Positions 1-19,067 are shown, counted from the first letter of the whole stretch. The stretch is DNA of 61,066 bases, filler included, from 3 parts of 3 records of this genome joined end to end with filler, not necessarily neighbours in it; one strand, 5' to 3'. Numbers and translations: made by a program. Notes: generated by a model from the sequence alone, not told the origin.

Positions 1-138
1 GCCGAGCGTCAGCGAGGCGCGGGGGGCGTGCCCTCGAACTCTGCAAAACTGTTGCTGAAACTCCCTTTCGCATTCTGCAAAACCAACGCAAAGAGCAAAG
101 CACCAACCTCTTCTTAGCCCCCGACGCTGTCTGCCTGA

Positions 139-218
139 GCGAAAAAACCCGGCGCCCTGTTTTCAGAAGCGATCCAGAGTTTAAACGGATCTGAAAACAG
201 GGCGCCGGGTTTTTTCGC
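139..218. terminator. 29-bp perfect inverted repeat (bidirectional intrinsic terminator-like hairpin)
   Basis: GCGAAAAAACCCGGCGCCCTGTTTTCAGA (139-167) and its exact reverse complement (190-218) with a 22-nt loop; A6/T6 tracts near the outer ends; about 20 nt downstream of the stop of the minus-strand operon. Confidence 0.75.
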
Positions 219-237
219 GCGCCGCATACGGGCAAAC

Positions 238-816
238 TCAGTCGTCGCCCGAGGTGATGGCGTGTTGCTCCACCATGCTCTCCTCACAGGTATCCGCGCT
301 CGTCCACAGGTTCTCGGCGAACTCGTCCTGGCCAGTGCGTGGCGCATACCGGTTGTAGTGAACCTCCTCGATGAACTCGCCCTCGACCTCGCGCGTGAAG
401 ATGTAGACGTAGGTTCCGTTGTATTCAGGAACCACGCAGCTATCGACGCTCCAGACGCCATCGGCAAACGTCATCTCGATCCCCTCGTTTAGAGGATAGG
501 AATCCCCCACGAGTCGCACTGAGACCTCGTCCTCCATCCCGTCCGGGTCCGCGATGGCAAAGGTCACCTCGCAGCAAAACTCCATATCCGTCTCACTGCC
601 ACCGTTCCCGAGGTCCTCCTCCTCGTAGGGATACTCGCTGATGGTCGTCTGGTTCCCCCCATCCTCGGGGACGCCATACACCATCACAGGACGCTCGCCG
701 AGCACCGGCGGCGCGGGCGTAGTTTCCGTGGTGCTGTTGTTCTCATCCTCTCCGTTCCGACCGCACGCAGTGAGCGCGAGCAAGAGAAGCAACGTGACTG
801 GTTTCACATATCTCAT
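238..816 (-). CDS. Lipoprotein, 192 aa, with possible C-terminal E-set/CBM48-like beta domain
   Basis: Lipobox LLALTA-C; acidic linker; C-terminal VRLVGD...MTFADGVWSV...YVYIF pattern; ATG overlaps the upstream stop (ATGA, 813-816). Confidence 0.75.
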   Translation of the reverse strand: MRYVKPVTLLLLLALTACGRNGEDENNSTTETTPAPPVLGERPVMVYGVPEDGGNQTTISEYPYEEEDLGNGGSETDMEFCCEVTFAIADPDGMEDEVSVRLVGDSYPLNEGIEMTFADGVWSVDSCVVPEYNGTYVYIFTREVEGEFIEEVHYNRYAPRTGQDEFAENLWTSADTCEESMVEQHAITSGDD

Positions 817-2945
817 TCTGCGCTCCTGATGCTGTCCGAGGTGGCCTTCACGATGCTCGGTGGTTGCTCGCCGACAGGTTGTTGAACCCCTCCGCCATCG
901 CCGCCGCCTTGAGCGTTGTCGCCTGTGAGCTTTCCAACGAGCGCCAGACGAAGCGTCGCAGGATCGAGGTGAGGCGCGATGGTTCGGTACAAACCTGTGC
1001 GGTTCTCGACCTCGAAGGGAATCATCGCTGCGAACTCCGCCTGCACGCGCTGTCGCAAGGGATCATCCTCGGGCATCTCCTCGATGGCGCGCCCGAGCAG
1101 ACGCACGAGCGCCTTCCTCGTGATCGCGCCTGGGCGCTGCTCCAGATCTGCAGCGGCGAGCTCGAGCACCTCGCGCGAGGTCATCTCGCGCGCGGCGAAC
1201 GTCTGCATCTCTAGCGAGTGATACAACGTGATCTTGACCCTCCAGTCCTTCTCCTTCTCGAGCCAGCGTCGCGTGAACTCGGCCGTCTCCGAAGGCGGCA
1301 TCCTGCGCATCACGATCGCGGCGACCTCGCGCGTGGAGTAATCGGGGTGGTCTGGGATGTCCTCGATCATCGAGAGCAGCCCGGGATCTCCGATGTTCAT
1401 CAGCGCGCCGTATGCAGGGCTCGCGATGATCGAGTTTGGCGCCTCGGAGAGCGCGAGTTGGATCGCGTCGACGGCGATCTTCTTGATGTCGTCCCGGTTC
1501 GGGTTCCTGCCAGACATCATCCCCAGCGCGAGCAAGGCGTGCCGCGCGGTCAGGTGCTCTGCTTTGTTTTTGCTGCTGGCGAGCGGCCTCGCGAGCGCCG
1601 CCAACTCGAGCGCGAACGCATCCCCCACATCAGGTCTGTCGACCAGTGAGAACATCGCGCGCACTCTGTCAAAGGATGCGATCGAGCGATCCTGTACGAT
1701 CTCTTCGAGCGCCTGCTTTGCCTCGAGGTTTCGCGTGTTCCCGAGCGCGATAAACACGCCCATGGTCGCACGAGATGGGATCTCGTCCTTGACCAGCTTG
1801 CTCGCGATAACGGGCACCATATCTGGCCTCGCTTCGAGGTAGAGTCGCATCTCTGGCCAGGTGTCCTGAATGCCGACATCCTCCGCGTCAATGCGCGTGA
1901 GCATCCTGTCGAGCATCTCATCGAGCGGCTCTCCTCGCAGCGCGTCACGCGCGCGAAGCTCCTTGCCAGAGATCGCCCCGCCCTCGTCCAACGGGATCGT
2001 CATCGGCAAGAGATCCGCCCAGACGTAGTCTCCCTGCGAGCGCGACGCGCTGCCAAAGACCTCAGCGTCTTGCTCGGGCAGAAGATCGGCGCGGAGCGTG
2101 CGCCTGGAGGTGATGCCTGTGCCGCTGTAGGTCGCATCGAGTGATACAGACGCGAACCACCCGCGCTCACCCTGCGCCACGTTGGCGACGTAACCATCGA
2201 CCTCACTCAGGCTCCCCATCCCCGTGTACCAGGGCTCGAGCACTGTGACGCGTTTTCGCAACGCGCCGTTCTCAAGCCGACGAACCTCCCCCTTGATCTC
2301 ACCGAGCGAATCGCGCCCCTCGTACAGCGCGCCAACATTCGCATCGGGCAAGGCAAACGAGAGGTCATGCAAGAGCGCCTGCTGGATCCTCGCGTACCCG
2401 ATGGGCAACGACTCGAGGTGTGCGAACCCTCCGATGCTGCAATCAGGGCTGACCCTGAACAGGAACGGTTCAGCGAGCATCGCGTCCTTTCGCACCGCCG
2501 TGGTGCGAAAACGCGAGAGCTTGCCGAGCATCAACGAGCCCTCCGGCGAGCTCTCCAGGACCTCGGTGTTCAGCGTCCCGGAGTAGGAACTCTGAACCTC
2601 GGTCGGTTGCCCCTTGCCGCCAAAACCGAACCCGAGCGGCTCGATCTCGGCCTCGTCCTTGCCATCGATGGCATAAGACGCGCGGTCGCCAACTTCGAAA
2701 GCGCAGGACTCTCGAACGATGCCACTTTTGACATCATCGCCTGGCGCTTCGACATCATCTGCCTCTGGCGCCGTCCTCGCGACCCCCGGTCGCATCCTGG
2801 TGTCGCGTTCATATGTGGATTGCGCGGGTTCTTCTATGCGTGGTTGCTCCTCTCCCTTCGAGGACGAGAGGATAACACCCGCAGCGAGTATAGCCCCGGA
2901 GCCGAGCAGAAGCGTCGCGCCCTTTTGTGCGGTAATACCTTTCAT
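813..2945 (-). CDS. Membrane-anchored/exported protein (~710 aa) with N-terminal beta region and HEAT-like helical solenoid
   Basis: Start reassigned to ATG 2945 (MKGITAQK), which has GGAGG upstream and overlaps the previous stop (TGATG); hydrophobic N-terminal segment; repeated ALG-type helical hairpins (FIALGNT, LLALGMM, YGALMNIGD). Confidence 0.75.
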   Translation of the reverse strand: MKGITAQKGATLLLGSGAILAAGVILSSSKGEEQPRIEEPAQSTYERDTRMRPGVARTAPEADDVEAPGDDVKSGIVRESCAFEVGDRASYAIDGKDEAEIEPLGFGFGGKGQPTEVQSSYSGTLNTEVLESSPEGSLMLGKLSRFRTTAVRKDAMLAEPFLFRVSPDCSIGGFAHLESLPIGYARIQQALLHDLSFALPDANVGALYEGRDSLGEIKGEVRRLENGALRKRVTVLEPWYTGMGSLSEVDGYVANVAQGERGWFASVSLDATYSGTGITSRRTLRADLLPEQDAEVFGSASRSQGDYVWADLLPMTIPLDEGGAISGKELRARDALRGEPLDEMLDRMLTRIDAEDVGIQDTWPEMRLYLEARPDMVPVIASKLVKDEIPSRATMGVFIALGNTRNLEAKQALEEIVQDRSIASFDRVRAMFSLVDRPDVGDAFALELAALARPLASSKNKAEHLTARHALLALGMMSGRNPNRDDIKKIAVDAIQLALSEAPNSIIASPAYGALMNIGDPGLLSMIEDIPDHPDYSTREVAAIVMRRMPPSETAEFTRRWLEKEKDWRVKITLYHSLEMQTFAAREMTSREVLELAAADLEQRPGAITRKALVRLLGRAIEEMPEDDPLRQRVQAEFAAMIPFEVENRTGLYRTIAPHLDPATLRLALVGKLTGDNAQGGGDGGGVQQPVGEQPPSIVKATSDSIRSAE

Positions 2946-5900
2946 CAGTAATCCTCCAGAACAGGGAGTTCCAACTTGTAGAGGTCGACTTCGAAGACCT
3001 TGATTCCATCGAACTCGTGGATGAGCCACTCGAGCGTGAGCTCGGCGAACAACAACGTGACCTTGAGCGCGGCCTTCACATCACCGCTAAACAGCGAGAG
3101 CGTGAAGGGGATGCTGAACTCGAGGACGCCGTTTCGCGCGAACGCGTCGCCATCTCGGAACAACCAACGGAAGGTCTGCCCCACGGTCGGTTTGACCTCG
3201 GCGGCGATGATGTTCAAGCTCGCGCTCAGGCAGAACCCGACAAAGGGAGAAGGCGTGCAGCCCTCGAGCCCCACACCAGCACCGAGCCCCAGCGCGAGCC
3301 CCGTCGCCCAGGAGAAGTAAACCTCGTCATCAGCATACGGGAGCCTGCATACGTAAGGATGCGCGCCCGCGTTGTTCCCTTCGACCACAGAGACGCCAAG
3401 GTTCTTGTCGCGCGCGTTGTAGAACACCGCCGCGCCCGTCTCGCCATGAGTCGGCAGGCCGCGTTGGTTGTCGATGATGATATCGCTCGAGTAACGCACG
3501 GTGCCGGTAGCGTCGGACGCGAACGGCGCGCTGTCCGAGAGCCAGCGATACTCGGTGACTCTGCTATCCTTCTCGTAGGCGAGCTGTGCGCCGATCCAGG
3601 CGGTGTCGATCCCTTCAGCGAGCATCTCGTCGGCAAGTCCTCCCGCCTCGTTCATCTCGCGCAGCTCGACCAGTCGTCCGCCTGCATCACTGCACGCGTC
3701 CGCGGCATCTGCGAACGAGGTATTGGTCGTCTCGACGATGTAGCAATCCTCGCTCTCGCCGAGGCACTCGTAGGCGTCATCATCCTCTGGCGCGACGGCG
3801 ACCTCGATCGAGAGCCCCACGGAGGCGCCGACGGTGAACTTGAAGGTCACGAACACGGGCACAGGTCCGATGTTGAACATCAGGTTGTAGCCGATCGAAT
3901 AACCCAACCCATCGCGCTCGCCGATCCTGCCCTCGTCCCACTCGGTGTTCGGGCTCGGGTCTCCGCCATTGAGAAGCTCTGCGATGTTGTCCCAATCGGG
4001 GCTGATGTTAAACGTGAGCTTGCGCGAGCTGCCGACATCATCGGTGCTGCCAAAGGCACCACCCAGCGAGCTCATATCGAGCGCCATGAAGTCCGCGAGC
4101 TGCCCTCTGAACTTGAGCGCCACGGTGTCATACATCTGGTCTGCTTCTTTCGGCTCGCGCTCGAGCGTCGTCGTCATATCGAGCGCCGGGCGCCCGCCCT
4201 CACCGCTCGAGCGACCGCCCGAGTTGGCGGTGTTCGAGCAGTAGACATCCGAGGAGTCATTGTTCGGGCATGTCTCCTCGAGATCCGTGTCGTTGCTGCC
4301 GGACATGCTCGTATCACCGGAGTCCTGCTGGTCCGCGAAGTCGGTGTGAATCCTTGCCGAAGCAGGGACATCCGCAGAGACGCGCTCGGCGCCCTCGATC
4401 GGCGTCCTGAAGCGATCGACATAGACCACCACGGGGACCTTGGCGGTGCGACATCCTCGGTACTTGAAGGGGGTCGCATACGGGTTATGCATCCTGGAGT
4501 TCTCGAGCTCGAGGCTCCAGACCCTGTCGAACGGACCGGTCCAGTAATGCTCGCGCCTTGGCTGCCCTTCGTTGATCCTGCGCACGTCATGCGCCAGATC
4601 GTAGGTGTCGACGAGGTTGTAGGTGCCCTGCCCGTTGGTGTTCGGGTAGCGCTGGCTCAGGAGGCGAGTTTCGTTTCGGTAGTAGTTGTAGCCTTCGGTC
4701 CAACCTGTGGTGAACGCGTCGCGCTTGAGCAAGCCATCCCACGCGTTGATGCAATAGAAGAGGTCGAACGCTCTCGACTCTCCGGGGATGTAGTGTGGGC
4801 TGGTGGCATCGCGCACCATCTTTTGCTTGGCGACGGCCGGGAAGACCAGGCTCGCGCTCTGGGTGATGCCATCGTCGGCGCCCTCGATCTTGCCATTGTT
4901 CTTGCCATCGGAGAGGTCGACCTTTCCGAGGTAAAGCGGCGTGATCGCCTCGCGCTCGCTCGCGGAGAGCCCCGCCGGGACGAGGTAAACATCGGCTCGC
5001 GGCGAGTTGATGTACTTGCGGTTCTCGCCGTAGATCTGGCGCGTGCTCGGCTGCTCGAGGTTGAACACATGGCTTCGATCCATGTTGTTGACATACCAGG
5101 AGAGGTCGAACGTCAGGAGCGTGCGCCGGTTCGAGAAGACGCGAATCACGGGCTCGTTCCTGGCGACGATATCCTTGGTGCCGATCTCGGAGCGGTCCGC
5201 GTAAAGATAGGAGAAGTAGAGCTCCTGATCGCCAGGCGGGTCGTAGGTCGTGATCTTGCGCTGAGAGAAGTAAGCCGTCTGATTGTACGACTTGCTGTTG
5301 ATCTCGTAGAACATCCCGACAGGATTGGGCGTGCACTCGGGCTCGGAGTCGCCGAGCTGTGACGCGGTCTGGAGCGTGAGCCCCTTGTGCCACACGCTGT
5401 GCCCATCCATATCGTAGGAGAGGTGGAGCTTCTGGACGATGCTCTCTCGATCCACGTAAAGGTATGGCAAGGAGCCCGGGCTCCCTGGGTAGAGCTGTTT
5501 GACGTGATCTTGCATCTCCTTGACAGGATCGATGTCGATGCAGTCCTGCGCGAACTTGGTCTCGATCACCTTCTGGTAGACCTTGGTGCCGTCGCTCTTT
5601 GTCGTGTGAGGATCATCGGCACGCAGCGTGACCGCGAACGGCACGCAACGGAAGCGATTGGCGGTGACGAGCCCGCGGTGCACGTCCTCGATCCAGGCGG
5701 TCAACTTGACCTCTTCCGGGACCAGGCCGTTGGCAAAGGAGACCGTCAGCGGGATCTTGTAGGTCGCGTTGATCGGGAACGGCTTGGCGGGCAACTTGTT
5801 GGCGTCTAGCTGGCGCTTGATGATCGCCTCGGTGTACACATCCGTGGTCTGCGTCGTCGGCTCGATCGTGCCGAACTTGGCGTCGACGACGACCTCGACC

Positions 5901-6583
5901 TTGGAGTCATCGACCACGCACTGCATATCCGCGTTGCGTCGCGCTCGCCCATGGCACTCCAGCGGCACACAGGCGACCGTGCCATCGCGTTGGTCCTTTT
6001 GCAGGAGCTGCTCCCCGACGCCTCGACAGCTGATCTCGTTGCGCGTGTTGTACGTCCCCGCCGTCTCCTGCGTCACCGTGGACATGTAGATCCGGGGCTC
6101 TCCGTTGTCGTCGAGATCCCTGTCTCCGCATGTGTACTTGATCGTCGCGTCCGAGAACTTGCACCCTTCGTTGGTGCCATCGCCCGAACACGCACGGTTA
6201 TCCCGACAGACGCCGATAGCGGCGCACTCGCGCAGGTTGCCGCAATACCCTCTGGCGACCCGGAGCGCGAATGCCTCGTCGAGCCCTTCGGCACAAGAGA
6301 CCTCCTCGATCTTGATGCGCGCGTAGTTGGCGAGCATCCCTTCTGTCTCGCCTGACATCTCGGCCGAGGATGTGTACTCCTCGGAGTTGAGCGCGGTCCC
6401 CGACGAGGGGAATCGCCACGGGATCTCGCCGTCAGGGCAAACAATATCACTGTAGACCTTGTCCCGGCTCAGGCCCGTGGGCGCATCCGGTTCGGTCGGC
6501 TCTTCTTGAACGCAACCGGCGGCCACCATGATCAGGATCATGGCGAGACCAATCGGAAGCTTCTGTTTCACGTTTGTCTTCAT
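2945..6583 (-). CDS. Large lipoprotein (~1212 aa) with C-type lectin-like domain
   Basis: Start reassigned to ATG 6583 (MKTNVKQK; GAGGAGG RBS); lipobox MVAAG-C; CTLD signature CY...SFADAADAC...GGRLVE...AWIG...YRW...YVC at ~3340-3765. Confidence 0.8.
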   Translation of the reverse strand: MKTNVKQKLPIGLAMILIMVAAGCVQEEPTEPDAPTGLSRDKVYSDIVCPDGEIPWRFPSSGTALNSEEYTSSAEMSGETEGMLANYARIKIEEVSCAEGLDEAFALRVARGYCGNLRECAAIGVCRDNRACSGDGTNEGCKFSDATIKYTCGDRDLDDNGEPRIYMSTVTQETAGTYNTRNEISCRGVGEQLLQKDQRDGTVACVPLECHGRARRNADMQCVVDDSKVEVVVDAKFGTIEPTTQTTDVYTEAIIKRQLDANKLPAKPFPINATYKIPLTVSFANGLVPEEVKLTAWIEDVHRGLVTANRFRCVPFAVTLRADDPHTTKSDGTKVYQKVIETKFAQDCIDIDPVKEMQDHVKQLYPGSPGSLPYLYVDRESIVQKLHLSYDMDGHSVWHKGLTLQTASQLGDSEPECTPNPVGMFYEINSKSYNQTAYFSQRKITTYDPPGDQELYFSYLYADRSEIGTKDIVARNEPVIRVFSNRRTLLTFDLSWYVNNMDRSHVFNLEQPSTRQIYGENRKYINSPRADVYLVPAGLSASEREAITPLYLGKVDLSDGKNNGKIEGADDGITQSASLVFPAVAKQKMVRDATSPHYIPGESRAFDLFYCINAWDGLLKRDAFTTGWTEGYNYYRNETRLLSQRYPNTNGQGTYNLVDTYDLAHDVRRINEGQPRREHYWTGPFDRVWSLELENSRMHNPYATPFKYRGCRTAKVPVVVYVDRFRTPIEGAERVSADVPASARIHTDFADQQDSGDTSMSGSNDTDLEETCPNNDSSDVYCSNTANSGGRSSGEGGRPALDMTTTLEREPKEADQMYDTVALKFRGQLADFMALDMSSLGGAFGSTDDVGSSRKLTFNISPDWDNIAELLNGGDPSPNTEWDEGRIGERDGLGYSIGYNLMFNIGPVPVFVTFKFTVGASVGLSIEVAVAPEDDDAYECLGESEDCYIVETTNTSFADAADACSDAGGRLVELREMNEAGGLADEMLAEGIDTAWIGAQLAYEKDSRVTEYRWLSDSAPFASDATGTVRYSSDIIIDNQRGLPTHGETGAAVFYNARDKNLGVSVVEGNNAGAHPYVCRLPYADDEVYFSWATGLALGLGAGVGLEGCTPSPFVGFCLSASLNIIAAEVKPTVGQTFRWLFRDGDAFARNGVLEFSIPFTLSLFSGDVKAALKVTLLFAELTLEWLIHEFDGIKVFEVDLYKLELPVLEDY

Positions 6584-6597
6584 TCCAATCCTCCTCA

Positions 6598-9500
6598 TCA
6601 AGGCGCCACGCAGCGCAACACGACACATCCATCACCACCCACGCCCAGGAAGTCACTGCCAGCGCCAGCGTCGATGCTGTTGGCGCCCTGACAACGGCTG
6701 TAGTCGGCGTTCGAGGTCCCTCCCGGAACCCAGTTGAAGGTGTTGGGGTCTTCGATCGAGTCATACGGCGTGAGCCCTGCGGGGAGCGTCCCGTAGGCGC
6801 CGGGGTTTTCACCCGCGCCGCCCGGATCACCTGCGCCACCGCCGCCCTGGTTGCCGCTCCCGACCGCACCTGCGTAGCCGGCCGTGGTTGTGCCTGCGGT
6901 CGTCATCACGCTCATGCTCATCCCATCGGCAAACTCGGAGGCGCCAGCGCCAGCAGGGACAACAAACGACTGCGTCGCGCTGCCAGTGATTTGAACGCTC
7001 GTCAAACCGCCGCCGCCACCTGGATCAGACCCCATCGAGTTGAAGCCACCTTCGCCACCGTTGGCGGCAGTGCCCAGGTAGGAACCTGCCCCCTGCGTGG
7101 TAAACCCGGAGCTTCCACCCTGACCGAGCCAGACCGTGACGACATCTCCAGGAGCGACCGTCAGCGTGCCCTCGACATAGCCGCCCGCGCCGCCGAGGTT
7201 GCTCGCGAAGCCCATAAAGTCATCGCCGCCACCAGCAGCACCCCACGCCTGGACGTAGAGGCTCGTACAGCCAGCCGGGATCGTGTAGGTCCCCGAAGCG
7301 GTCGTGCCATCGGTGACAGGTTGGTCGATAAAGTACTGACCTGCGCCGCACGTGCCCGAAGCGTTCGAGCAGTTGCCGGAGTTCGCGCCGCACACGCAGT
7401 CATTGCCCGCACAATCCGAATCGAGCGTGCAGCTCTGCCCGGCCATGCACGCACCACATGTCATGCCTCCGCAATCGACGTCGGTCTCGTCCTGGTTCTT
7501 CGTGCCATCGCCGCAGAGGTTCATGGAGCATGTCCCGTTGTCACAGGCCGCGCCCATGGCGCAATCAGCGGACTGATTGCAAGACTGCCCGATCATGCAC
7601 TTCGTCGCGCACGAGCCGCCGCAGTCGACATCACCCTCGGAGGGGTCCTTCATGTTGTTGGAGCAAGAGGCGTCCTTGCAGGTGCCATTGTCACAGGTCA
7701 AACCCGCCTGACAGTCCGCGTCTCCGCCGCACATCTTGTCCTCACCGCACTTGTTCACGCAGACCGCGCCGCAGTCGACGTCCGCTTCGCCAGGATCTTG
7801 CGTGCCGTTGTTGCAGTCAGGGCTCGCGCACTGGCTGTTCACGCACAGGTTGCCCATGACGCAATCGCCATCCATCGTGCAGCTCTGCCCACCGACGCAT
7901 CGGTCGCAGCTCGAGCTGCCGCCGCAGTCGATATCCGACTCGTCCGCATCCTTCATGTTGTTGCCACAAGATGCTGGAACGCAGACATTGCCCGAGCAAA
8001 CCGCCCCGGAGGTGCAATCCGCGGTCTCGTTGCAGTTCTTGCCAAGCTGGCATGCGAAGGCGCAGGAGGTCCCGCAATCGACGTCGACCTCATCTGGGTC
8101 CTTCATATTGTTGCCGCAGGTCTCGGGGTAGCACCCGTTGTTCACGCAGAAGAGACCTGTGCCGCAGTCAGACGTGTTCAGACAGAACTGAGCGCGCGCG
8201 CAACGGGGGCACGAGCTCGTGCCACCACAGTCGACATCGGTCTCACCAGCGTCCTTGGTGTCATTGCCACAGGTCGCGGGAAGGCAGGTGTTGTCGATGC
8301 AGGTCGACGAGGCGCAGTCGGTGCCCGCGGTGCACGCCTTGCCATCTCCGCAAGCGCCGCACACCGAGCTACCGCCGCAGTCGACGTCGGACTCGTTCAT
8401 ATCCTTGGTGTTGTTGTTGCAGACCTCGATCTTGCAGGTCGAGCCGACGCATGCGTAGCCCGAGGCCGTGTCGCAATCACTGCTGGCCTGGCAGGACTCT
8501 CCAGCATCGCACCTCGCGGTGCACGAGGATCCACCGCAATCGACGTCGGTCTCGTCCTGGTTTTTGGTCATATCCGAGCACGTCCCCGACTCGCGGCAGA
8601 CGTACCCAGTGCAGGTCAACCCGCTCGCGCAATCCGAGGTTGTCAGGCAGGTGTTATTCGCCCTGCAGCCACCGCAGGTCCCCCCGCAATCGTGCCCGGT
8701 TTCGTCCTGGTTTTGGCGATTGTCTGAACAGGTCGCCACGCCATTGCGATAGTCCGCCTTACTCACACTGAAGAAGACCTCCTTCAGGTCAGGCCTGGCG
8801 ACAAACAGATACCCTGCGTCGGTGAACTCGTTGTCTCGGAAACGATAGCGTCCGATATCGAGCTCTGCGCGAATCGGTTTGGTTTCGCCCAGTGTGTAGC
8901 CGACCTTGTAGTCCGTCCTCTTCGGGTTTTGAATCACCCTGATCGCCCAGTAGTTCTGGTAAACCCCCAGATCTGTGTGCTGCTTTTTGATATCGATGAG
9001 CTGGATCGGGCCACCATCGACGCTGAGCGCCATCTTGATCGGATCGCCTTCGAGTTTTTGTTTGTTTTCCTCGAGGTGCAAGGAGTTCAGATAGAAGTTC
9101 AGCTTGACGATCATCCGGTTTTCGTTTGGCTCCGGGCAATCGATCTTGAGCGTTCCATCCGCGCGCATCGGCGATTCGGCGGTTGGCCCTGCGTATTGAC
9201 TCGTCGAAACCACCGGCGAGCAAGCCTCGGCGCTGACAAACTCGTAGGAGTACGCCTCCCCGATCTTGTAGCGCAGCGTGCCATCGACAGGTTCGATCGA
9301 GACCGTCTTGTTGCGGCCGTCGAGGTTCACGACGAGCCAATAGCTCGAACCTGCGTCAGGCAAGCGATCGAACTCGGCATAGATCGGAAACTTCACGCGG
9401 CACTTGTTCTCGACACAAATGGCCGTGTCACAATCTGCTGCGGTGTTGCATCCGGGCGTATCGAGCCCCGACGTCGCCACGCACGCATCACAAATACTGC

Positions 9501-11277
9501 CGCCGCAATCGACGCCGGTTTCGCCAGGACTCTGAGAGCCGCTGTCACAATCAGGGTCGAGGTCTGCGCACAGGTTGCCCTCGCAGAAACCCGCCGCGCA
9601 GTCGCCGTCATTCAAGCAGGCCTTGCCCAGACCACAGGTCGCGCCGCAAGAGCCGCCGCAATCCTGATCCGTCTCGGAGCTGTCCTTCATCCCGTTGCTA
9701 CAAATCGCAGCGTCAGCAGGATCGGTATCGAGCGTGACCCGATTCTCCATGCCGGGGTTCACCGTAGCGCGCGAATCCTCGCCATTGGAGGTGTAGTCGA
9801 ACGAGTTCGTCTTCGAGTTGCCCTCGCCATCCTGAGTCGTCGAGGTGACGTTCACATCTGAGCCTTCGGGCAACCCGGAGACAGACACGCTGGTGGTGCC
9901 ATCCTCGTTGTTGACAAGATCGACCGAGACGTCGCCGTTGGAGCCCTCGACCGTGACTGTCACAGTGGTGCGCGTTCCATCTCCATTGATACGCGTCGAC
10001 GAGATGGTCACGCCCCCTTCATTGTTCTTGGAGGAGTATGAGACGTCGCCGTTCTCTCCAAACGTCGCGGCGTCACCGACCTTGGGGTTGTCCGCCTCGA
10101 GGTTGCTCGAGAAGCCCAACCCGTAGTTTTGCACCGAGGCCTTGTTGGTGTCACCCGAAGCGGTCGACCTTACGCCATCTGCAGCGGTCACGGCGATATT
10201 GCGCTTTGGCTTGAAGCCCTTGGCGAGCGTGGCCTGGTTGACGATCGCGACCGCCGTGCCGCAACGAGGACACCTCGAGAACGCCGGGCGAACCCAATCA
10301 CCCTCGGCCTCGATCACCTCGCCGTCACGAATACCAGTCTCCTCGCCGTCCTCGTTCGAGGCCACGATGGAGACGCCTGAATAGGTCTGCGCCAGATACT
10401 CCGAGTCCTCGTCGAATGGCGCGGGCAAGGCGCCGAGACGATCCTCGATGGCGGCGAAGTAGAGGTAGTTCGGCTTCTCTTCGGTGCTCTCGTAGACGAT
10501 CGGGGTCCCGTCGATTCCGGGGACCTCGTAGCGCCATGTGTTGGCCTTCGGGTGAACCTCGAGGACCTGCTCGCGCGAGGGGAAGTTGTTGTCATAGACA
10601 CGCAGCCAGTAGGTATCCTCGCGCTCGTTATCCTTGAAATAACCGATAGGCGTGAGCGCGTGACCTCTGGCAAAGCCAACCTCTGTGCGTTGTGCGATGG
10701 CGAGGCGATAGTGCTTCTCGCTCTCCTCGGCGAGCGCCTCGGCGAGGAATGGCATCACATCCGCGGCGAGGTAGCGCACATCCGCCTTGGCGGCATCGGG
10801 CACCGCCTGAGTCGCCGCCCAGTAGGCGAACTCCTCCTGGAGCGCGATGTTCCCATCGAGCGTCAGGTCGGCGACGTTCTCGGCGCCGTAATCCTTTGGA
10901 TCGAGCTGTCCTGAATGAAACATCAACGAGAGGACCGCGAAGCCCTCGCTTCGCCCCTGATCCAGGGTCTTATTCGTCCCACGCATCCAGAGGTTGGCGC
11001 GAGGTGTCAGGACGCAAGGATCTGAGCCCTCGACGCACACGGCCTCGGCGCCAAACATGCGCTGCATCACCTGTGGGTTGATTTGTGTGGCGACCCCGGC
11101 GCCTCCGAAGTTCTCGAAGGTGAAGGCTTCGGTGACAAAGTCAAAGCCGGAGTACACCTGAGGAGGAACCGCCTTTTGACCTGGAGGCGGGTCTGGGTCT
11201 GACCCACACGAAGAACATGAGGTCAGCAGTGACAGCGTCAACGCCATCAACGCTGGAGCGATACGCGCTCTGAGCAT
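6598..11277 (-). CDS. Giant lipoprotein (~1559 aa): papain-like N-terminal domain, 11 Cys-rich ETDxDCGG repeats, C-terminal glycine-rich domain
   Basis: Start reassigned to ATG 11277 (AAGGAG RBS), lipobox LLTS-C; repeats C-x2-G/N-x-KD-x2-E-x-D-x-DCGG-x-C; C-terminal VQAWGAAGGG...GGAGGYVEGTL glycine-rich fold. Confidence 0.8.
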   Translation of the reverse strand: MLRARIAPALMALTLSLLTSCSSCGSDPDPPPGQKAVPPQVYSGFDFVTEAFTFENFGGAGVATQINPQVMQRMFGAEAVCVEGSDPCVLTPRANLWMRGTNKTLDQGRSEGFAVLSLMFHSGQLDPKDYGAENVADLTLDGNIALQEEFAYWAATQAVPDAAKADVRYLAADVMPFLAEALAEESEKHYRLAIAQRTEVGFARGHALTPIGYFKDNEREDTYWLRVYDNNFPSREQVLEVHPKANTWRYEVPGIDGTPIVYESTEEKPNYLYFAAIEDRLGALPAPFDEDSEYLAQTYSGVSIVASNEDGEETGIRDGEVIEAEGDWVRPAFSRCPRCGTAVAIVNQATLAKGFKPKRNIAVTAADGVRSTASGDTNKASVQNYGLGFSSNLEADNPKVGDAATFGENGDVSYSSKNNEGGVTISSTRINGDGTRTTVTVTVEGSNGDVSVDLVNNEDGTTSVSVSGLPEGSDVNVTSTTQDGEGNSKTNSFDYTSNGEDSRATVNPGMENRVTLDTDPADAAICSNGMKDSSETDQDCGGSCGATCGLGKACLNDGDCAAGFCEGNLCADLDPDCDSGSQSPGETGVDCGGSICDACVATSGLDTPGCNTAADCDTAICVENKCRVKFPIYAEFDRLPDAGSSYWLVVNLDGRNKTVSIEPVDGTLRYKIGEAYSYEFVSAEACSPVVSTSQYAGPTAESPMRADGTLKIDCPEPNENRMIVKLNFYLNSLHLEENKQKLEGDPIKMALSVDGGPIQLIDIKKQHTDLGVYQNYWAIRVIQNPKRTDYKVGYTLGETKPIRAELDIGRYRFRDNEFTDAGYLFVARPDLKEVFFSVSKADYRNGVATCSDNRQNQDETGHDCGGTCGGCRANNTCLTTSDCASGLTCTGYVCRESGTCSDMTKNQDETDVDCGGSSCTARCDAGESCQASSDCDTASGYACVGSTCKIEVCNNNTKDMNESDVDCGGSSVCGACGDGKACTAGTDCASSTCIDNTCLPATCGNDTKDAGETDVDCGGTSSCPRCARAQFCLNTSDCGTGLFCVNNGCYPETCGNNMKDPDEVDVDCGTSCAFACQLGKNCNETADCTSGAVCSGNVCVPASCGNNMKDADESDIDCGGSSSCDRCVGGQSCTMDGDCVMGNLCVNSQCASPDCNNGTQDPGEADVDCGAVCVNKCGEDKMCGGDADCQAGLTCDNGTCKDASCSNNMKDPSEGDVDCGGSCATKCMIGQSCNQSADCAMGAACDNGTCSMNLCGDGTKNQDETDVDCGGMTCGACMAGQSCTLDSDCAGNDCVCGANSGNCSNASGTCGAGQYFIDQPVTDGTTASGTYTIPAGCTSLYVQAWGAAGGGDDFMGFASNLGGAGGYVEGTLTVAPGDVVTVWLGQGGSSGFTTQGAGSYLGTAANGGEGGFNSMGSDPGGGGGLTSVQITGSATQSFVVPAGAGASEFADGMSMSVMTTAGTTTAGYAGAVGSGNQGGGGAGDPGGAGENPGAYGTLPAGLTPYDSIEDPNTFNWVPGGTSNADYSRCQGANSIDAGAGSDFLGVGGDGCVVLRCVAP
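7360..8735 (-). repeat. Nine tandem ~48-aa Cys-rich coding repeats (E-x-D-x-DCGG); two more copies at ~9400-9705
   Basis: Seen in the translation, e.g. CSDMTKNQDETDVDCGG, CGNDTKDAGETDVDCGG, CGDGTKNQDETDVDCGG; DNA units recur as GCA(A/G)TCGAC. Confidence 0.85.
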
Positions 11278-11652
11278 GAAAGCACTCCTTGGCTCCGCTT
11301 CTTGGTCGTGCCAACGAGTCATCCACAGACAAGCCCCCCCGTGCCTCTCTTGTGAGCGATTCGCGGGCCTGGCCAAGTCAGAGGATCACACCACACACAC
11401 CGCTCGTGCTTCACGCACGGAAGTCTGCGGAGAAGATCATCTGAAACATTGTTTCGAACAGGAATTTTCTACCGACGATCCTACCTAACGAAACAGAATA
11501 ACTCAAGACAATATACTCACGAGTGATACTCGATAACTCCGTGTTCCGAGTGTCGGCGCTCTGTTCGTAAGGTGTTCAAAGGTCGCATCGACACGGAATG
11601 GCTGCTATTATAGCCCTAAATGCTCCAACACGAGTTCCCCCGAGGTGCCCCC

Positions 11653-12615
11653 ATGAAACCATCGCGCCAGCTCCTCTTGTTGATCCTGGTCACGTTCATC
11701 CTCCCCGCTTGCCTCACTGGCCCTGCCGGGAGCATCTTCGGGCGAGGAGGAGATGATGAGGATCAAGAGGAGCAGATCGGTGGGATGCAGGTCGCGCCTG
11801 ATATGCCCGAAGCGCCAGACGCGAATCACATGTCTGGAGCCGATATGCCCGAGGATATGCCTGGCCCTACAGACATGCCTGCTCCTGTAGACATGCCCTC
11901 CCCCCCAGAGGATATGAAAACCTGCCAGGATCAATGCACGGCAGGCACCTTCGACTGCCAGGGACCACGACTTTACACCTGCGAGAACGATCCAGGGACG
12001 GGATGCCTCGGCTTTGTCGAGGTGGCGCAATGCGGGCAGGATCAGTTCTGTGACAGCAACGCCGGAGAATGCGCCTGTCAGGTGGACGAGATGTGCACGC
12101 CGAACGAGCGACGTTGCATGGGGAGGGACGCGGTCGAGGTCTGCACCAGGAGTGAATCAGGTTGCACGACCTGGGAGATCGAGCGCACCTGTGATGGCCG
12201 CAGCTATTGCGACAACAACCTGCAGAACTGCCGCTGCCCTGCGAGTGATTGCACGAGCGCGGGCAGCACGAGCTGCAACGGCCCATCGGTCGTCGTCTGC
12301 GCACAGGACCCGGCCTCGGGATGCATTTACCCGGACACCACGCAGTCGACGCGTTGCGGCGACACTGAATATTGTGAAAATGGAGCCTGCCAGACGTGCG
12401 AAGAGCAGTGCACACCTGGAACAACGGTGTGTGTAGCTCCCGGCGAGATCCGAAACTGCATCAAGACCTCGAGTGACAAATGCCCGAGGCTCTCCTCGCC
12501 GCTCTCTTGCGGCACCACCAACCAGTGCCTCGGCAGGCCGAGCTGCTCGCAGGATGGCGACTGCGCGACCTGCGGCACGAGGAACGGGCAGACCTGTTAC
12601 TACTGCCCGCAGTGA
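11653..12615 (+). CDS. Cysteine-rich lipoprotein (~320 aa) with DM-repeat linker
   Basis: ATG 11653 preceded by GAGGTG; lipobox FILPA-C; PDMP/EDMP/VDMP linker; about four Cys-rich repeats (C-x2-G/N-x3-C-x-G). Confidence 0.8.
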   Translation: MKPSRQLLLLILVTFILPACLTGPAGSIFGRGGDDEDQEEQIGGMQVAPDMPEAPDANHMSGADMPEDMPGPTDMPAPVDMPSPPEDMKTCQDQCTAGTFDCQGPRLYTCENDPGTGCLGFVEVAQCGQDQFCDSNAGECACQVDEMCTPNERRCMGRDAVEVCTRSESGCTTWEIERTCDGRSYCDNNLQNCRCPASDCTSAGSTSCNGPSVVVCAQDPASGCIYPDTTQSTRCGDTEYCENGACQTCEEQCTPGTTVCVAPGEIRNCIKTSSDKCPRLSSPLSCGTTNQCLGRPSCSQDGDCATCGTRNGQTCYYCPQ

Positions 12616-12618
12616 TGT

Positions 12619-13068
12619 TCAGATTTGATAATTGGGCGTGAAGTCTTCGCCGGCGAGCTCGGGCACCGCGTCCGCGATCTGCTGGATCGAATAACGCCCC
12701 AGGATGCGAATCGTCGCCTCGCGGATCTCGCCCCACACCGGGATAAACGCGGCCTGACGCTCGGTCTGGTCACCATCCGAGGTGCGGTCGGCATACGTCT
12801 GCGGCGCGATCGGGCCATCCAGGTGCCGGATGACATCGAGCAACATGATCTCGCTGGCTGGACGGCTTAAAAAGTAACCGCCGTTCGCGCCGCGCTTGCT
12901 GCGAACAAACCCACCACGCTTGAGATCGCCCATGATCCCCTCGAGGAACTTGTTGGGGAGACTCTCCTCGTCCGCGATCGCCTGAATACTCATCGGATCG
13001 CTGGTGCGCGCTCCGGCGAGCGTCACCAAAGCCCGCAGTCCATACATGGTGCGTGCGCTGATATCCAT
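12619..13068 (-). CDS. Rrf2-family transcriptional regulator (Cys-free, CymR-like)
   Basis: YGLRALVTLA, wHTH, VRSKRGANGGYFLSRPASEI wing motif; no cysteines; C-terminus NYQI. Confidence 0.9.
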   Translation of the reverse strand: MDISARTMYGLRALVTLAGARTSDPMSIQAIADEESLPNKFLEGIMGDLKRGGFVRSKRGANGGYFLSRPASEIMLLDVIRHLDGPIAPQTYADRTSDGDQTERQAAFIPVWGEIREATIRILGRYSIQQIADAVPELAGEDFTPNYQI

Positions 13069-13345
13069 TTCGGTTCCTTTCCACTCACGTCGAAAACCCC
13101 AACACCTTCACACGAAGTCGCCTCGCGAGCAACCAGCACGCCCCCCAAAACGCGCCTGCCTTCGCGCGGCGATGAGGACACCTTCGACCACCGTGCGTCA
13201 GCCAAGGAGTGACGGCGCGTTTTTGTCCCCCCGGCTGCGCCAAGGGGAAGACTCGCGCTTCGAAGCGAGGTTGGAGCTTCGCGTCAAGCACGCTCGTGCA
13301 ACGCGCTGTATGTCTTAAAGCGACAGCGAGGACTACCGTGGCAAC

Positions 13346-14743
13346 TCAATCCTGGTCGCACAGGTCTCCGACCCCGTCCTTATCCTCGTCGGCCTGACCG
13401 GGGTTGAAGAAGTTGGGGCAGTTGTCGCAACGGTTGGCGATGCCATCGACGTCCGAGTCTGGCCCGGTGCAAGAGGTCGAGCAGGCGTCACCGATGCCGT
13501 CGCCATCCGCGTCTGCCTGGTCAGTGTTGGCGATGGTCGGGCAGTTATCGCACGAGTTGCCGATGCCATCGTTGTCGTTGTCCTCTTGCTGGTCATTGGG
13601 GCGCTGCGCGCAGTTGTCACACGCGTTGCCGATGCCGTCGCCATCCTGGTCGGTCTGGTCCTCGTTGGCGAGCCCGGGGCAGTTATCACACTGGTCCCCT
13701 ACCCCGTCGCCGTCGCCATCCGTTTGTTCGCGATTGGGGATGTCAGGGCACACATCGCAGGCATCGCCGATGGTGTCACCGTCGGCGTCACGCTGTGCTG
13801 GATCGGCATCCTCGGGGCAGATATCACACACATCACCGACACCATCTTCGTCGGTGTCGAGTTGATCCTCGTTGGCGGTGCCGAGGCAGTTATCACAGAC
13901 ATCACCCGCGCCATCACCATCCCCATCACGTTGCTCGATATTTGGCACCAACGGGCAGTTATCGACGCTGTTGTCCTTGGAGTCGCCGTCGATATCCTGG
14001 TCACAGGCATCGCCGAAGTCGTCATCGTCGAGGTTGGACTGATCGGTGTTGCGCACGTCGGGGCAGTTGTCGCACACGTCCCCCACGTCATCGAGGTCGA
14101 CGTCTTCCTGATCGGGGTTTGGCGAGAAGAAGCAGTTGTCACACGCGTCGCCGAAGCCATCCTCGTCGATGTCCTCTTGCAGTGGATCGAGCGCGGTGGG
14201 ACAGATATCACACACATCGCCGATGCGGTCGCCGTCGCCATCTGCCTGATCCGCGTTGGAGATCATCGCGCAGTTATCACACGCGTCACCGACGGTGTCT
14301 CCGTCGCCGTCCGCCTGATCCGGGTTATTGGCCAGCGGGCAGTTGTCATCGACATCCTCGACGCCGTCATCATCCGAGTCAGGATCGCAGGCGTCGCCCA
14401 GGCCGTCGCCGTCAACATCGGACTGGCCAGGGTTCGAGAGCCCGAGGCAGTTGTCACAGACATCGCCCGCGTTGTCGCCATCCTCGTCCGCCTGGTCGAG
14501 GTTGACGATCATGGGGCAGTTGTCGCAAGCGTCCCCCAAACCATCGAGGTCGGAGTCCACCTGATCCTTGTTGGAGACGGTGGGGCAATTGTCACGCGCG
14601 TCGCCGATCTCGTCGCCGTCAAAGTCAGCGCCCTTGCAACCAGTGGCGCCGAGCGTGGCCACCAGCGCAGAAATGACCAGCGCCCCCACGGTCCATCTCA
14701 GGGGCAATTGGCGCGTGATTCTGTTCCACATCCTGTGTTTCAT
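13346..14743 (-). CDS. Thrombospondin type-3 repeat lipoprotein (~465 aa)
   Basis: Start reassigned to ATG 14743 (MKHRMW); lipobox GATG-C; about 20 D-x-D-x-D-G-x-G-D-x-C-D-N-C-P units fill the mature protein. Confidence 0.88.
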   Translation of the reverse strand: MKHRMWNRITRQLPLRWTVGALVISALVATLGATGCKGADFDGDEIGDARDNCPTVSNKDQVDSDLDGLGDACDNCPMIVNLDQADEDGDNAGDVCDNCLGLSNPGQSDVDGDGLGDACDPDSDDDGVEDVDDNCPLANNPDQADGDGDTVGDACDNCAMISNADQADGDGDRIGDVCDICPTALDPLQEDIDEDGFGDACDNCFFSPNPDQEDVDLDDVGDVCDNCPDVRNTDQSNLDDDDFGDACDQDIDGDSKDNSVDNCPLVPNIEQRDGDGDGAGDVCDNCLGTANEDQLDTDEDGVGDVCDICPEDADPAQRDADGDTIGDACDVCPDIPNREQTDGDGDGVGDQCDNCPGLANEDQTDQDGDGIGNACDNCAQRPNDQQEDNDNDGIGNSCDNCPTIANTDQADADGDGIGDACSTSCTGPDSDVDGIANRCDNCPNFFNPGQADEDKDGVGDLCDQD

Positions 14744-14786
14744 CGCATCCTCGCCAGCGCCCAATCCATCGAGCGCTGCTTGCGCT

Positions 14787-15530
14787 TCAGATCTCGAAGA
14801 GGGGCTGAAGCAGGTGAAAAATACCTGGTTTATCGATCTGACCGCCGTTGGCGTAGCGCGCTTTCTCGATCTCGATCTCGATGGAGCCTTCGCGCTCGTC
14901 GAAGTCATTGCGGTAGCGCTGGATCACGCTCGGCTTGAACGGATCGAGCGCGACCCAGAGCAGGATCTCATCCTCCTGCTCATCGAACGCGATCTCAAGC
15001 GAGCGCTTGTGCGCCTTGATGGATGCGCCCGGCGTGAAGGTCATCCAAATGCCGTCCTCGTCCGCGCCAGCCTCGCGGTAGGTGAACCCGAACTGTGTCT
15101 GGATCGCCTCGACAACCGTCGAGATGATCGGGGACATCTTGATCTGGAGGACCTGCTCCTTGGTGATCGGGTTGGAGCCTTGCAAGGTCGCCACGGCGCG
15201 GAGTTTCCAGCCGAAGTTCCCGAGGCTCGGCGCGACCTGCGGAGGAATCTCCATATAAAAAGGCCACTCGTGCTTCTCGCCAGCCTGCAAGGAGATGCGC
15301 TCGGCGAGCACGAGGCCGTCGAAGACCTCCTGCATCTTCACGCCGTAATCATCGGGGAAGGTGTGGAGGAGCTCGAGGTTGACGGAGAAGACGTTGAGCG
15401 CCTTCTGCGCGTGCAACACGAGCTGCCCCTGGACCGTACCGCCCACGTGGCATCCTTCAGGTTGAACGCGGAGTTCGAACTCTCCCGTCGCCATCCCCAA
15501 CGTCTTCTTGATCGAATCGAGCAGCCCCAT
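14787..15530 (-). CDS. Spo0M-family (arrestin-like) protein
   Basis: ATG 15530 (MGLLDSIKKTLG) with GAGG; GGTVQGQLVL...ERISLQAGEKHEWPF..EIP..W.L pattern typical of Spo0M. Confidence 0.65.
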   Translation of the reverse strand: MGLLDSIKKTLGMATGEFELRVQPEGCHVGGTVQGQLVLHAQKALNVFSVNLELLHTFPDDYGVKMQEVFDGLVLAERISLQAGEKHEWPFYMEIPPQVAPSLGNFGWKLRAVATLQGSNPITKEQVLQIKMSPIISTVVEAIQTQFGFTYREAGADEDGIWMTFTPGASIKAHKRSLEIAFDEQEDEILLWVALDPFKPSVIQRYRNDFDEREGSIEIEIEKARYANGGQIDKPGIFHLLQPLFEI

Positions 15531-15606
15531 CGCCTCGTACCTCCATATCACAAAGGCTCGTGTCGCATCTTACCGAGACAGACTTATAGCCCAAGTCACG
15601 CACAGT

Positions 15607-16866: not shown

Positions 16867-17086
16867 CGCTCCATGGTCTTTTAATCAGTGCACGATGGCG
16901 ACGCAAACCGCGCTCGCCACCAGCGATCGGTCGGGAGTCTAGCAGCAGCCCGGCGATGGTTCATGATAAATCTGGTCAGAGCTCTCGGCGCGCTTTTATC
17001 TGTTGACTTGTCAGCAAGATGCGAGCGAGGTTGGCGCCGCACGAGTTCAGCCTGTTCGCAAGGAAAAGCAAGGAGCCACGCCTTAA

Positions 17087-17971
17087 ATGACTTCCAACAG
17101 CAACGACCCCAAACACACAGGGCCGATCAAGGCCACGCCGTTGCTCGAGTCCCTCTTCGGGCTCGATGGCGGCGCCATGTTCGGCATCATCCCCAGGCCC
17201 CTGTGGGAGAAGACCAATCCCCCCGATGAGAATAACCGCATCGCGATGGCGGCGCGCTGCCTCTTGCTCGAATGGGCCGACGGCACGCGCGCGCTGGTGG
17301 ATGTGGGGATGGGCGAGCGCTGGAGCGAGAAGGAGCGCGGCATTTACGCGATCCGGGAGCAGGATGGAGGATTGCGCGAGGCGCTAAAAGAGCGCGCCAT
17401 CGATCCGACCTCGATCGATCACGTGATCCTGACGCACCTGCACTTCGACCACGCGGGCGGCCTGAAGAAGACCGACGGGAGCGCCGCCTTCGCGGGCGCG
17501 ACGCACTGGGTTCAGCAGCGCAACTGGGCGTGGGCGCATGGCCCCTCGGCCAGAGATGGTGGGAGCTATCGCCCGGAGGACTGGGCGTTTCTGGGCGAGG
17601 ATGGAGCGCCGACGCTCGAGCTTGTCGATGGCATCAGCGAGATTTTGCCTGGCGTCGAGGTCTTGCCACAGCATGGGCACACCTTCGGGATGCAGGTCGT
17701 CAAGGTTCGCCTGCCACATGCGACGCTGGCGTTTGTCGCTGATCTTATCCCGACCTCTTCTCACCTTCGCGACCCGTACGTGATGGGTTATGATTTGCAA
17801 CCACTGGTGACGGTGCAGGAGAAGCGCGCGTTGCTTTACGAAGCCGCGCGTCATGATTGGGTGCTCTGTTTCGAGCACGATCCTGTATGTGATCTGGCGC
17901 GCGTCGAACTCGACAAACGAGGAAGACCGCGTCCCGTCCCAGTCACCCTCGAACAACTCCACGGAGCTTGA
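17087..17971 (+). CDS. MBL-fold metallo-hydrolase (YtnP-like)
   Basis: LDGGAMFGIIPRPLWEK, THLHFDHAGG, GHT, ADLIPT, MGYD, FEHDP motifs. Confidence 0.9.
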   Translation: MTSNSNDPKHTGPIKATPLLESLFGLDGGAMFGIIPRPLWEKTNPPDENNRIAMAARCLLLEWADGTRALVDVGMGERWSEKERGIYAIREQDGGLREALKERAIDPTSIDHVILTHLHFDHAGGLKKTDGSAAFAGATHWVQQRNWAWAHGPSARDGGSYRPEDWAFLGEDGAPTLELVDGISEILPGVEVLPQHGHTFGMQVVKVRLPHATLAFVADLIPTSSHLRDPYVMGYDLQPLVTVQEKRALLYEAARHDWVLCFEHDPVCDLARVELDKRGRPRPVPVTLEQLHGA

Positions 17972-17975
17972 AGAC

Positions 17976-19037: not shown

Positions 19038-19043
19038 GCGCTC

Positions 19044-19067
19044 GCGCCCACCCTCGAAGGTGGGCGC
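19044..19067. terminator. GC-rich hairpin after the CNNM gene
   Basis: GCGCCCACC-6nt-GGTGGGCGC 9-bp stem; no U-tract. Confidence 0.4.

Follow-up and report, generated by a model that had tools for sequence, protein, structure and literature searches.

Gene order, coupling and export signals

The DNA analysed here is a stretch of 61,066 nucleotides (nt; filler included), referred to throughout as the window, whose first part carries on the minus strand a cassette of four co-oriented genes that we call A, B, C and D. Gene A (6598..11277) encodes a protein of 1559 amino acids (aa), gene B (2945..6583) one of 1212 aa and gene C (813..2945) one of 710 aa, as read from the open reading frames (ORFs) and their translations, while gene D (238..816) encodes a putative acidic lipoprotein of 192 aa. 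We tentatively suggest that the four products belong to a split, envelope-anchored complex that resembles the large lipid transfer proteins (LLTPs) and handles lipid or other hydrophobic cargo. The suggestion starts from protein C, whose predicted fold is that of the N-terminal module of LLTPs.

The junctions between the genes were read directly from the sequence. The TGA of A is separated from the ATG of B by a gap of 14 nt that contains GAGGAGG, B and C overlap as TGATG with a single A in common, and C and D overlap as ATGA; a further AAGGAG stands 7 nt upstream of the ATG of gene A. Downstream of D, at about 139..218 on the minus strand, a long and almost perfect hairpin of ~80 nt with a flanking A-run and U-run closes the operon as an intrinsic-terminator-type element. 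Its loop exceeds the size limit of the terminator scan, and the hairpin was folded directly instead, giving -65.7 kcal/mol for the RNA (z = -10.7), with 0 of 200 shuffles as stable. Rfam and tRNA scans of the window returned no matches, and a sigma-70 scan of positions 1-12000 returned 0 sites, with a consensus that says little for a Bradymonadales-like lineage.

Proteins A, B and D each start with a predicted signal peptide ending in a lipobox (LLTSC in A, VAAGC in B, LTAC in D) whose Cys is invariant in the homologue alignments, as expected of bacterial lipoproteins, and the N-terminus of C is a single hydrophobic helix (residues 4-21) in its AlphaFold2 (AF2) model. An earlier interpretation made from the DNA letters alone (the sequence-only reading) had described four coupled genes of these lengths, joined by a gap and overlaps and closed by a hairpin, with three lipoboxes and one N-terminal anchor. 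All of this was confirmed, and the same signals are found in homologues.

Conservation and distribution

A word-based search yielded 14 proteins like C, and a pattern scan limited to one genome per species led to eight loci, in an uncultured Bradymonadales, Lujinxingiaceae, a 'delta proteobacterium' (two loci), a 'Deltaproteobacteria' metagenome-assembled genome, Sandaracinus and two Archangium. According to tblastn with the four window proteins, the order A-B-C-D is found in 7/8 of these loci, the eighth showing C-D only on a contig that ends at C. Gene A is kept in every locus with upstream DNA (7/7), and the homologous loci also preserve the lipoboxes, C's anchor and the overlaps between stop and start codons. 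Three further loci (two in genome G341 and one in G082) agree with the cassette order as far as their contigs extend. An all-against-all ORF comparison revealed no fifth gene common across the loci, and flanking genes are common only between near-identical pairs. The sequence-only reading had named scattered homologues as a ground for giving up its proposal; the homologues are co-localised, and this ground falls away.

Several genomes hold more than one copy of the cassette: it occurs in three places in G044, in two in G046 and in three in G341. In one of the three copies of G044, a 7.5-Mb 'delta proteobacterium' (locus L007, 10001-11846), gene C is split over two frames near 10504-10527, as could result from a frameshift, from decay of this copy or from an error in sequencing.

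The family of C reaches well beyond these loci. When the C profile was searched exhaustively with HMMER, 1537 proteins were recovered at E <= 0.001, of which 507 remained at E <= 1e-10 and 210 at E <= 1e-30; these are counts of 50%-identity representatives, most of which are 620-710 aa long and matched end to end. Matches at E <= 1e-20 are present in at least 11 of the 301 genomes of the phylum to which the Bradymonadales genome belongs, and in 0 of the 301 genomes of the phylum of G001, a genome that is related to other contigs of the window and is discussed below. The named members of the C family are all Myxococcota or 'Deltaproteobacteria' (Archangium, Hyalangium versicolor WP_224372999.1, Kofleriaceae), and the cassette is also found in Sandaracinus, Lujinxingiaceae and Bradymonadales.

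Distant homologues of C were examined at seven loci (24-27% identity). In 6/7 of them a lipoprotein of 750-990 aa is encoded immediately upstream of C, and A and D were undetected at all seven. The tails of these upstream lipoproteins match the lectin-plus-strand module of B (hhalign probability 95.6%, E 1.1e-8). Since a B-like lipoprotein accompanies distant C proteins at loci where A and D are undetected, the conserved core is likely to consist of a B-like protein and C, to which A and D appear to be additions of this clade.

The gene right after C was looked at in four of the distant B-like/C pairs. In 3/4 it encodes an exported protein of 430-485 aa with a metzincin-type HExxH site and a weak match to Pfam Peptidase_M10 (E 6e-4 to 4e-3; L026 7832-9148, L029 835-2124 and L030 1115-2569, the latter two on the minus strand). 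Judged by sequence, this gene would be an accessory set different from A and D.

Marine and hydrothermal-vent metagenomes account for 19 public runs with near-identical DNA, and 14 of these contain at least half of the sampled words; among the 19 are six metatranscriptome libraries (five studies). The contigs of four marine metatranscriptome libraries (three studies) cover 30, 29, 29 and 27 of 30 bins across window positions 1-11700 at 95-100% identity, and one RNA-library contig (281-1524) bridges the C/D junction. Contigs from all four of these libraries diverge from the window at positions 1356 and 3195, with the same foreign continuation, and these breaks suggest that parts of C and B, and no more, are shared with a paralogous copy or a second strain.

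Predicted structure of protein C

The AF2 model of C, built from 14 sequences (predicted local distance difference test (pLDDT) score 79.8, predicted template modelling (pTM) score 0.60), is disordered to residue 77, with a linker of ~55 aa. It then forms a beta-barrel (residues 88-310; 2016..2684, minus strand) that includes one internal helix (182-195), and a HEAT-like alpha-solenoid (residues 327-670; 936..1967, minus strand), which is also recognised by Pfam HEAT_2 (E 6.8e-7). The protein ends at residue 710, ~40 disordered residues past the solenoid. The helical solenoid had already been seen by the sequence-only reading; the barrel in front of it had not been named.

When the model was compared with the PDB by Foldseek, the top 11 matches were all LLTPs, followed by HEAT and armadillo proteins. 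The E-values were 5.1e-13 for the microsomal triglyceride transfer protein MTP (6i7s), 4.6e-9 for lipovitellin (1lsh), ~1e-8 for honey-bee vitellogenin (9ens/9enr) and 2.1e-7 for apoB100 (9bd1). A second structure search, run over 48,161 chains and independent of Foldseek, gave the same picture: among the best 50 rows, both the barrel and the solenoid are covered in four, and all four are LLTPs (1lsh, Z 16.4, 532 residues aligned; 9bd1, Z 16.3, 448; 9enr, Z 14.9, 505; 8eoj, Z 14.2, 492), the remaining 46 being solenoids aligned to residues ~323-690 of C only. The beta-barrel of apoB100 (9bd8) and residues 78-405 of the C model align over 271 residues with Z 16.3 and a root-mean-square deviation (rmsd) of 6.9 A.

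Part of the C family is also linked to LLTPs at the level of sequence profiles. Pfam Vitellogenin_N (PF01347) is matched at E <= 0.01 by 4/14 close members and by 16/71 wider members, with a best E of 6.1e-8, and when 30 family members were checked singly, 5 of them reached the 24-bit gathering score of Vitellogenin_N (24.9-32.1 bits). In the available part of PMC6717300, LLTPs are defined by their N-terminal barrel-plus-helical module, the lipid-binding C-terminal part being the one that has diverged. The modelled C shows this same succession, an N-terminal beta-barrel with a domain of alpha-helices after it. From the two-domain fold match of the model, together with the Vitellogenin_N matches within the family, we accept C as a distant LLTP-type front module.

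Predicted structure of protein B

Protein B is predicted to consist of a Cys-rich N-terminal part made of multiple beta domains, a disordered linker (model residues 702-830) and a long-strand tail. The tail module (residues ~880-1212; 2948..3946, minus strand) contains strands of 15-32 residues according to DSSP of the model, several of which alternate sharply between their two faces; in strand 885-906, for example, the Kyte-Doolittle values of the two faces are +3.72 and -0.75, and the milder face bears Gly, Ala and Ser. The long amphipathic beta-strands proposed from the sequence are thus present in the B model.

Inserted into this module is a C-type lectin-like domain (residues ~938-1084; 3332..3772, minus strand), which is likewise in line with the sequence-only reading and is supported by both fold and profile. 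It aligns with CL-K1 (4yli) over 119 residues (Z 14.0, rmsd 2.4 A; Foldseek probability 1.00), a PDB profile is matched with E 7.9e-5, and Pfam Lectin_C is matched with E 0.06 in B itself and is found in 11/14 homologues. As modelled, the insert has the fold, the Cys residues (invariant in the alignment) and the WIG motif (at model residue 973) of a C-type lectin-like domain. A motif check found none of EPN, QPD, EPS, QPN or WND within it; lacking EPN/QPD and WND, the domain is not expected to bind sugar in the classical calcium-dependent manner.

A search of the Atlas with B gave no usable match. A likeness of B to alpha-2-macroglobulins was considered and rejected, the Foldseek matches having chance-level TM-scores of 0.06-0.07 and probabilities of 0.13-0.41.

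Proteins A and D

Protein A is a composite of several parts. Its N-terminal domain (residues 25-345; 10243..11205, minus strand) is conserved in the alignments, with Ser110 (in GRSEG), His206 and Asp229/Asn231 invariant. Searched with 12 sequences at E <= 10, it has no Pfam or PDB profile match, a match to Phage_tail_terminator_5 (4/12, E 0.0054) being taken as spurious, and the Atlas returned only unnamed clusters. The papain-like domain listed by the sequence-only reading is supported here by neither Pfam, PDB profiles nor the Atlas. The invariant Ser/His/Asp-Asn set follows the order of a papain-type Cys/His/Asn(Asp) triad, with Ser where the Cys would be. Used alone as a query, the N-terminal domain retrieves 5 proteins of 197-465 aa with no Pfam family on record, which we regard as pieces of A-type proteins; for two of them the source itself gives the label 'partial'. 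A 322-aa fragment (P0174), 87% identical to the N-terminal domain of A, is recorded as a sequence of the kelp Laminaria digitata. Bacterial DNA inside a eukaryote assembly is its most likely origin, and the record hints at an organism living on seaweed.

The middle of A (residues ~526-1310; 7348..9702, minus strand) holds 11 repeats of ~50 aa with six Cys each. They were located by regular-expression anchors at residues 535, 586, 859, 909, 962, 1012, 1063, 1113, 1164, 1214 and 1264, an arrangement of 2 + 9 that is interrupted by a beta domain of ~215 aa (8743-9387, minus strand). The 11 Cys/Asp-rich repeats of the sequence-only reading are therefore all accounted for. In total A contains 102 Cys, and the number of repeats differs between homologues. 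The C-terminal domain (residues 1328-1554; 6616..7296, minus strand) is the best-conserved part of A and aligns with Pfam Gly_rich_2 over profile positions 3-223 of 226 (E 2.3e-4), the family being matched at E <= 0.01 in 4/8 A homologues. The glycine-rich domain of the sequence-only reading is thus backed by a nearly full-length alignment, whose score of 21.7 bits lies below the cut-off of 24.3. A match of A to the toxin Cry23Aa1 (E 0.17) is insignificant.

For protein D, a profile comparison found the CBM48-like N-terminal sandwich of pullulanase (5ot1), with E 4.5e-5 over the sandwich core. D has no Pfam match, and NCBIfam gave only a lipoprotein-signal match, to LptM (E 0.004). At the place where an aromatic 'FNNW'-type sugar-binding stretch would align, D does not keep it. 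The possible carbohydrate-binding module suggested earlier is retained as a weak likeness to CBM48.

Proposed function and its alternatives

We suggest, with a probability of roughly two in five, that the cassette encodes an LLTP-like complex which is split over separate chains, anchored in the envelope and devoted to lipid or other hydrophobic cargo. Protein C would be held in the inner membrane by its one N-terminal helix and would carry the LLTP 'front half' on a flexible linker. Protein B, a putative lipoprotein made just ahead of C from the same translationally coupled message, would dock on C through its tail, which would take the place of the sheets that hold lipid in animal LLTPs and belong there to a single chain. 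Between them, B and C would enclose a hydrophobic cavity or groove in which lipid or another hydrophobic cargo is bound and from which it is passed on within the cell envelope, this cargo being either the cell's own or derived from lysed prey. Protein A would be a long stalk knotted by disulfides and topped by a glycine-rich head, and its N-terminal domain, given the invariant Ser/His/Asp set, may make it a hydrolase. With D as a small CBM48-like domain, A and D would probably be the outward-facing binding or processing parts.

A role in lipid or membrane handling had been part of the sequence-only reading, and it now gains support from a feature which that reading did not name, the LLTP-like barrel and solenoid of C. 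Translational coupling and conservation of the cassette suggest that its proteins co-assemble. For the predicted complex of C (residues 78-673) with the tail of B, the interface score ipSAE (interaction prediction score from aligned errors) was 0.29 and 0.29 against a mark of 0.34, values that come without controls or family alignments and weigh neither way.

Several observations count against such a complex. The TM-scores between C and LLTPs in Foldseek are only 0.27-0.38 with an rmsd of 10-14 A, which results from a different orientation of the two domains. The window's own C has no Vitellogenin_N match at E <= 0.1, and those of its relatives fall mostly at profile positions ~330-530, that is, in the helical, HEAT-like part, so that the sequence link is by itself soft. 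C also stops after the solenoid and is devoid of the sheets by which LLTPs hold lipid. Moreover, in the available part of PMC6717300 the barrel-plus-solenoid module also appears as a protein-docking platform that binds PDI and apoB in MTP, and the fold of C alone is therefore no proof of lipid handling. On the side of B, the AF2 model is of middling quality (pLDDT 64.5, pTM 0.39), and no LLTP is found among the best 50 of its 122 Foldseek matches (E <= 0.001) or among the rows listed in the Foldseek-independent search, which are filled by lectin domains. No Pfam lipid-binding family matches B or the distant B-like proteins at E <= 10. The cassette itself includes no ATPase, transporter, lipid enzyme or energy source. 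Finally, the contigs from RNA libraries carry neither strand nor transcript ends, and such libraries can contain DNA, so they are only a hint that the genes are expressed.

The alternative to which we give most weight, possible if doubtful, is a surface recognition or adhesion complex, in which the lectin fold of B, D and the stalk of A bind the surfaces of prey or substrate and C is a membrane scaffold that docks the lipoproteins, with no lipid being moved. Such a complex would make direct use of the confirmed lectin fold of B, of the resemblance of D to a CBM48-type domain and of the disulfide-rich repeats of A, 11 in the window and variable in number between homologues, as in stalks; the docking platform described for the LLTP front module would fit the scaffold role of C. 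The operon's organism moreover appears to belong to a group, the Bradymonadales, whose members are thought to be predators in the available part of PMC8460266. However, the lectin domain of B is without EPN/QPD and WND and D is without the aromatic 'FNNW'-type stretch at the aligned place, and the glycan recognition put forward by the sequence-only reading is weak as a consequence, with D CBM48-like only by a weak profile match. In addition, the distant versions keep only a B-like protein and C, so the binding parts A and D lie outside the conserved core. An adhesion complex also leaves unexplained why, among the structure matches listed, only lipid carriers fit both domains of C. A role in prey attachment, which the sequence-only reading had also favoured, is speculation.

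Improbable in our view is a contact-dependent attack device. Here the Gly/Ala/Ser-rich amphipathic hairpins of B, once targeted by the lectin fold, would enter a prey membrane and form a beta-pore in it, A would act as a reach-out stalk, and C would hold or chaperone B until release. The very long amphipathic strands of B with small residues on one face would suit a pore, all partners are exported, the lineage is a predatory one according to the same part of PMC8460266, and the metzincin-type HExxH gene lies just downstream of C in 3/4 of the distant cassettes tested. On the other hand, there is no pore-forming toxin among the structure matches listed for B, the sole toxin-like match is the insignificant one between A and Cry23Aa1 (E 0.17), no immunity-like small gene is conserved with the cassette, and the lipid anchors speak against release.

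The least probable account, a periplasmic complex for protease handling or protein quality control with the N-terminal beta-sandwich chain of B as an alpha-2-macroglobulin, the Ser/His/Asp domain of A as a peptidase and C as a HEAT-type scaffold, can draw on the weak resemblances that Foldseek gives between B and CD109, TEP1 or bacterial alpha-2-macroglobulins (E 6.6e-6 to 1.4e-4), on the invariant Ser110/His206/Asp229 of A and on the metzincin-like neighbour in distant cassettes, but the alpha-2-macroglobulin matches have chance-level TM-scores (0.06-0.07), no peptidase family matches A, and the barrel of C, which matches only LLTPs among the rows listed, is ignored.

Comparison with known systems

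If the cassette does encode a split LLTP-like complex, its closest counterparts are the LLTPs themselves (MTP alpha, 6I7S/8EOJ; lamprey lipovitellin, 1LSH; honey-bee vitellogenin, 9ENR/9ENS; apoB100, 9BD1/9BD8), which are placed in eukaryotes in the available part of PMC6717300. Protein C shares both of their domains and follows their order over ~600 residues, of which 450-530 are aligned, it is likewise exported, and some members of its family pass the Vitellogenin_N threshold. It differs in being bacterial, in having an N-terminal membrane helix, in sharing only 8-13% identity and in having no PDI partner. The lipid-binding sheets that LLTPs carry in the same chain are absent from C and may be supplied by a separate upstream gene, and the cassette encodes two further lipoproteins.

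The insert of B shares its fold, its Cys residues and WIG with C-type lectin-like domains such as those of CL-K1 (4YLI), tetranectin (1HTN), LOX-1 (6TL9) and CD93 (8A59), at Z 10-14 and an rmsd of ~2.4-3 A. Unlike these, it sits between the long beta-strands of a bacterial lipoprotein and is without EPN/QPD or WND. D aligns with the core of the CBM48/AMPK-beta glycogen-binding type of sandwich (pullulanase, 5OT1). It differs in standing alone as a small lipoprotein without a catalytic domain and in not keeping the aromatic sugar-binding stretch at the aligned place.

Lipid transport across the bacterial envelope is carried out by MCE systems (Mla, Pqi, Let), by AsmA-like bridges (TamB, YhdP) and by Lpt. 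The job that we propose for the cassette would be equivalent: hydrophobic cargo would cross the periplasm between a part anchored in the inner membrane and lipoproteins of the outer membrane. The folds, however, are unrelated, the cassette contains no ABC ATPase or permease, and none of the MCE, AsmA-like or Lpt families is matched by it in Pfam or NCBIfam. A match to an already characterised system was another ground on which the sequence-only reading was prepared to give way. No such match was found in Pfam, NCBIfam or full-text literature searches; the full-text literature, with subscription journals outside its coverage, yielded nothing published about this cassette or about LLTPs in bacteria.

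What would be new here is the occurrence of a known fold family in another domain of life, where it is divided between genes and forms part of an envelope cassette of four genes. Particular to this cassette are the lectin-fold insert within the partner's tail and two extra conserved lipoproteins. A sizeable bacterial family, with 210 representative clusters at E <= 1e-30, would share the LLTP front module and be paired with an exported lipoprotein rich in strands. If true, the origin of the LLTP fold would move outside animals, and the bacterial envelope would gain a new kind of candidate lipid-handling machine, in lineages that make their living by killing other bacteria.

A bolder form of the same idea, which we consider unlikely, is that B and C make up a true two-chain LLTP spanning the envelope of predatory Myxococcota and Bradymonadales, with C as the anchored front half and the tail of B as a lipid cavity gated by a lectin-fold plug. 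The bacterial family would then be the sister group or the ancestor of MTP, vitellogenin and apoB of animals, and the fold would have arisen in bacteria, perhaps for harvesting prey lipids, and have reached eukaryotes by descent or gene transfer. These ideas are testable, as the family has a member in the cultured species Hyalangium versicolor and near-identical copies of the operon occur in marine and vent metagenomes and in RNA libraries.

Source of the contigs and neighbouring genes

The window is made up of three contigs, joined by N44-TTAATTAATTAA-N44 linkers (also written N-TTAATTAATTAA-N) at 26209-26308 and 53732-53831, and the operon lies on contig 1 (1-26208). Tetranucleotide usage of contig 1 correlates with that of contigs 2 and 3 at only 0.78, compared with 0.955 between contigs 2 and 3. 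The 3.3-Mb genome G001 matches contigs 2-3 at 95-97% identity and has no match to window positions 1-20000; a search for C in 41 relatives of G001 likewise gave no match. The absence of C around G001 is explained by the window being three contigs from two organisms, and the assembly therefore mixes two organisms. A cysteine synthase encoded on contig 1 is 68% identical to that of two Bradymonadales genomes (G042 and G043, the latter Lujinxingiaceae) and 37% identical to that of G001. The organism of the operon is therefore Bradymonadales-like, and contigs 2-3 come from another lineage. The sequence-only reading, which had pointed to a Myxococcota/Bradymonadia-like host, agrees with this cysteine synthase and with the cassette's relatives, which are Bradymonadales or Myxococcota.

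Some other genes of contig 1 deserve mention. Upstream of the cassette, a divergent gene on the plus strand (11620-12615) encodes 331 aa with a signal-peptide-like start and no Pfam family, and it is not kept beside the cassette elsewhere. In a 520-aa protein (13346-14908, minus strand), Pfam TSP_3 recognises 8 thrombospondin type 3 repeats (E 4.4e-64), which gives the operon's contig a further 'eukaryote-style' extracellular module, of the calcium-binding kind. At the end of contig 1, a gene for a 683-aa protein with a transglutaminase core (24049-26100, minus strand) is followed by an overlapping 523-aa ORF that belongs to no family (22481-24052, minus strand).

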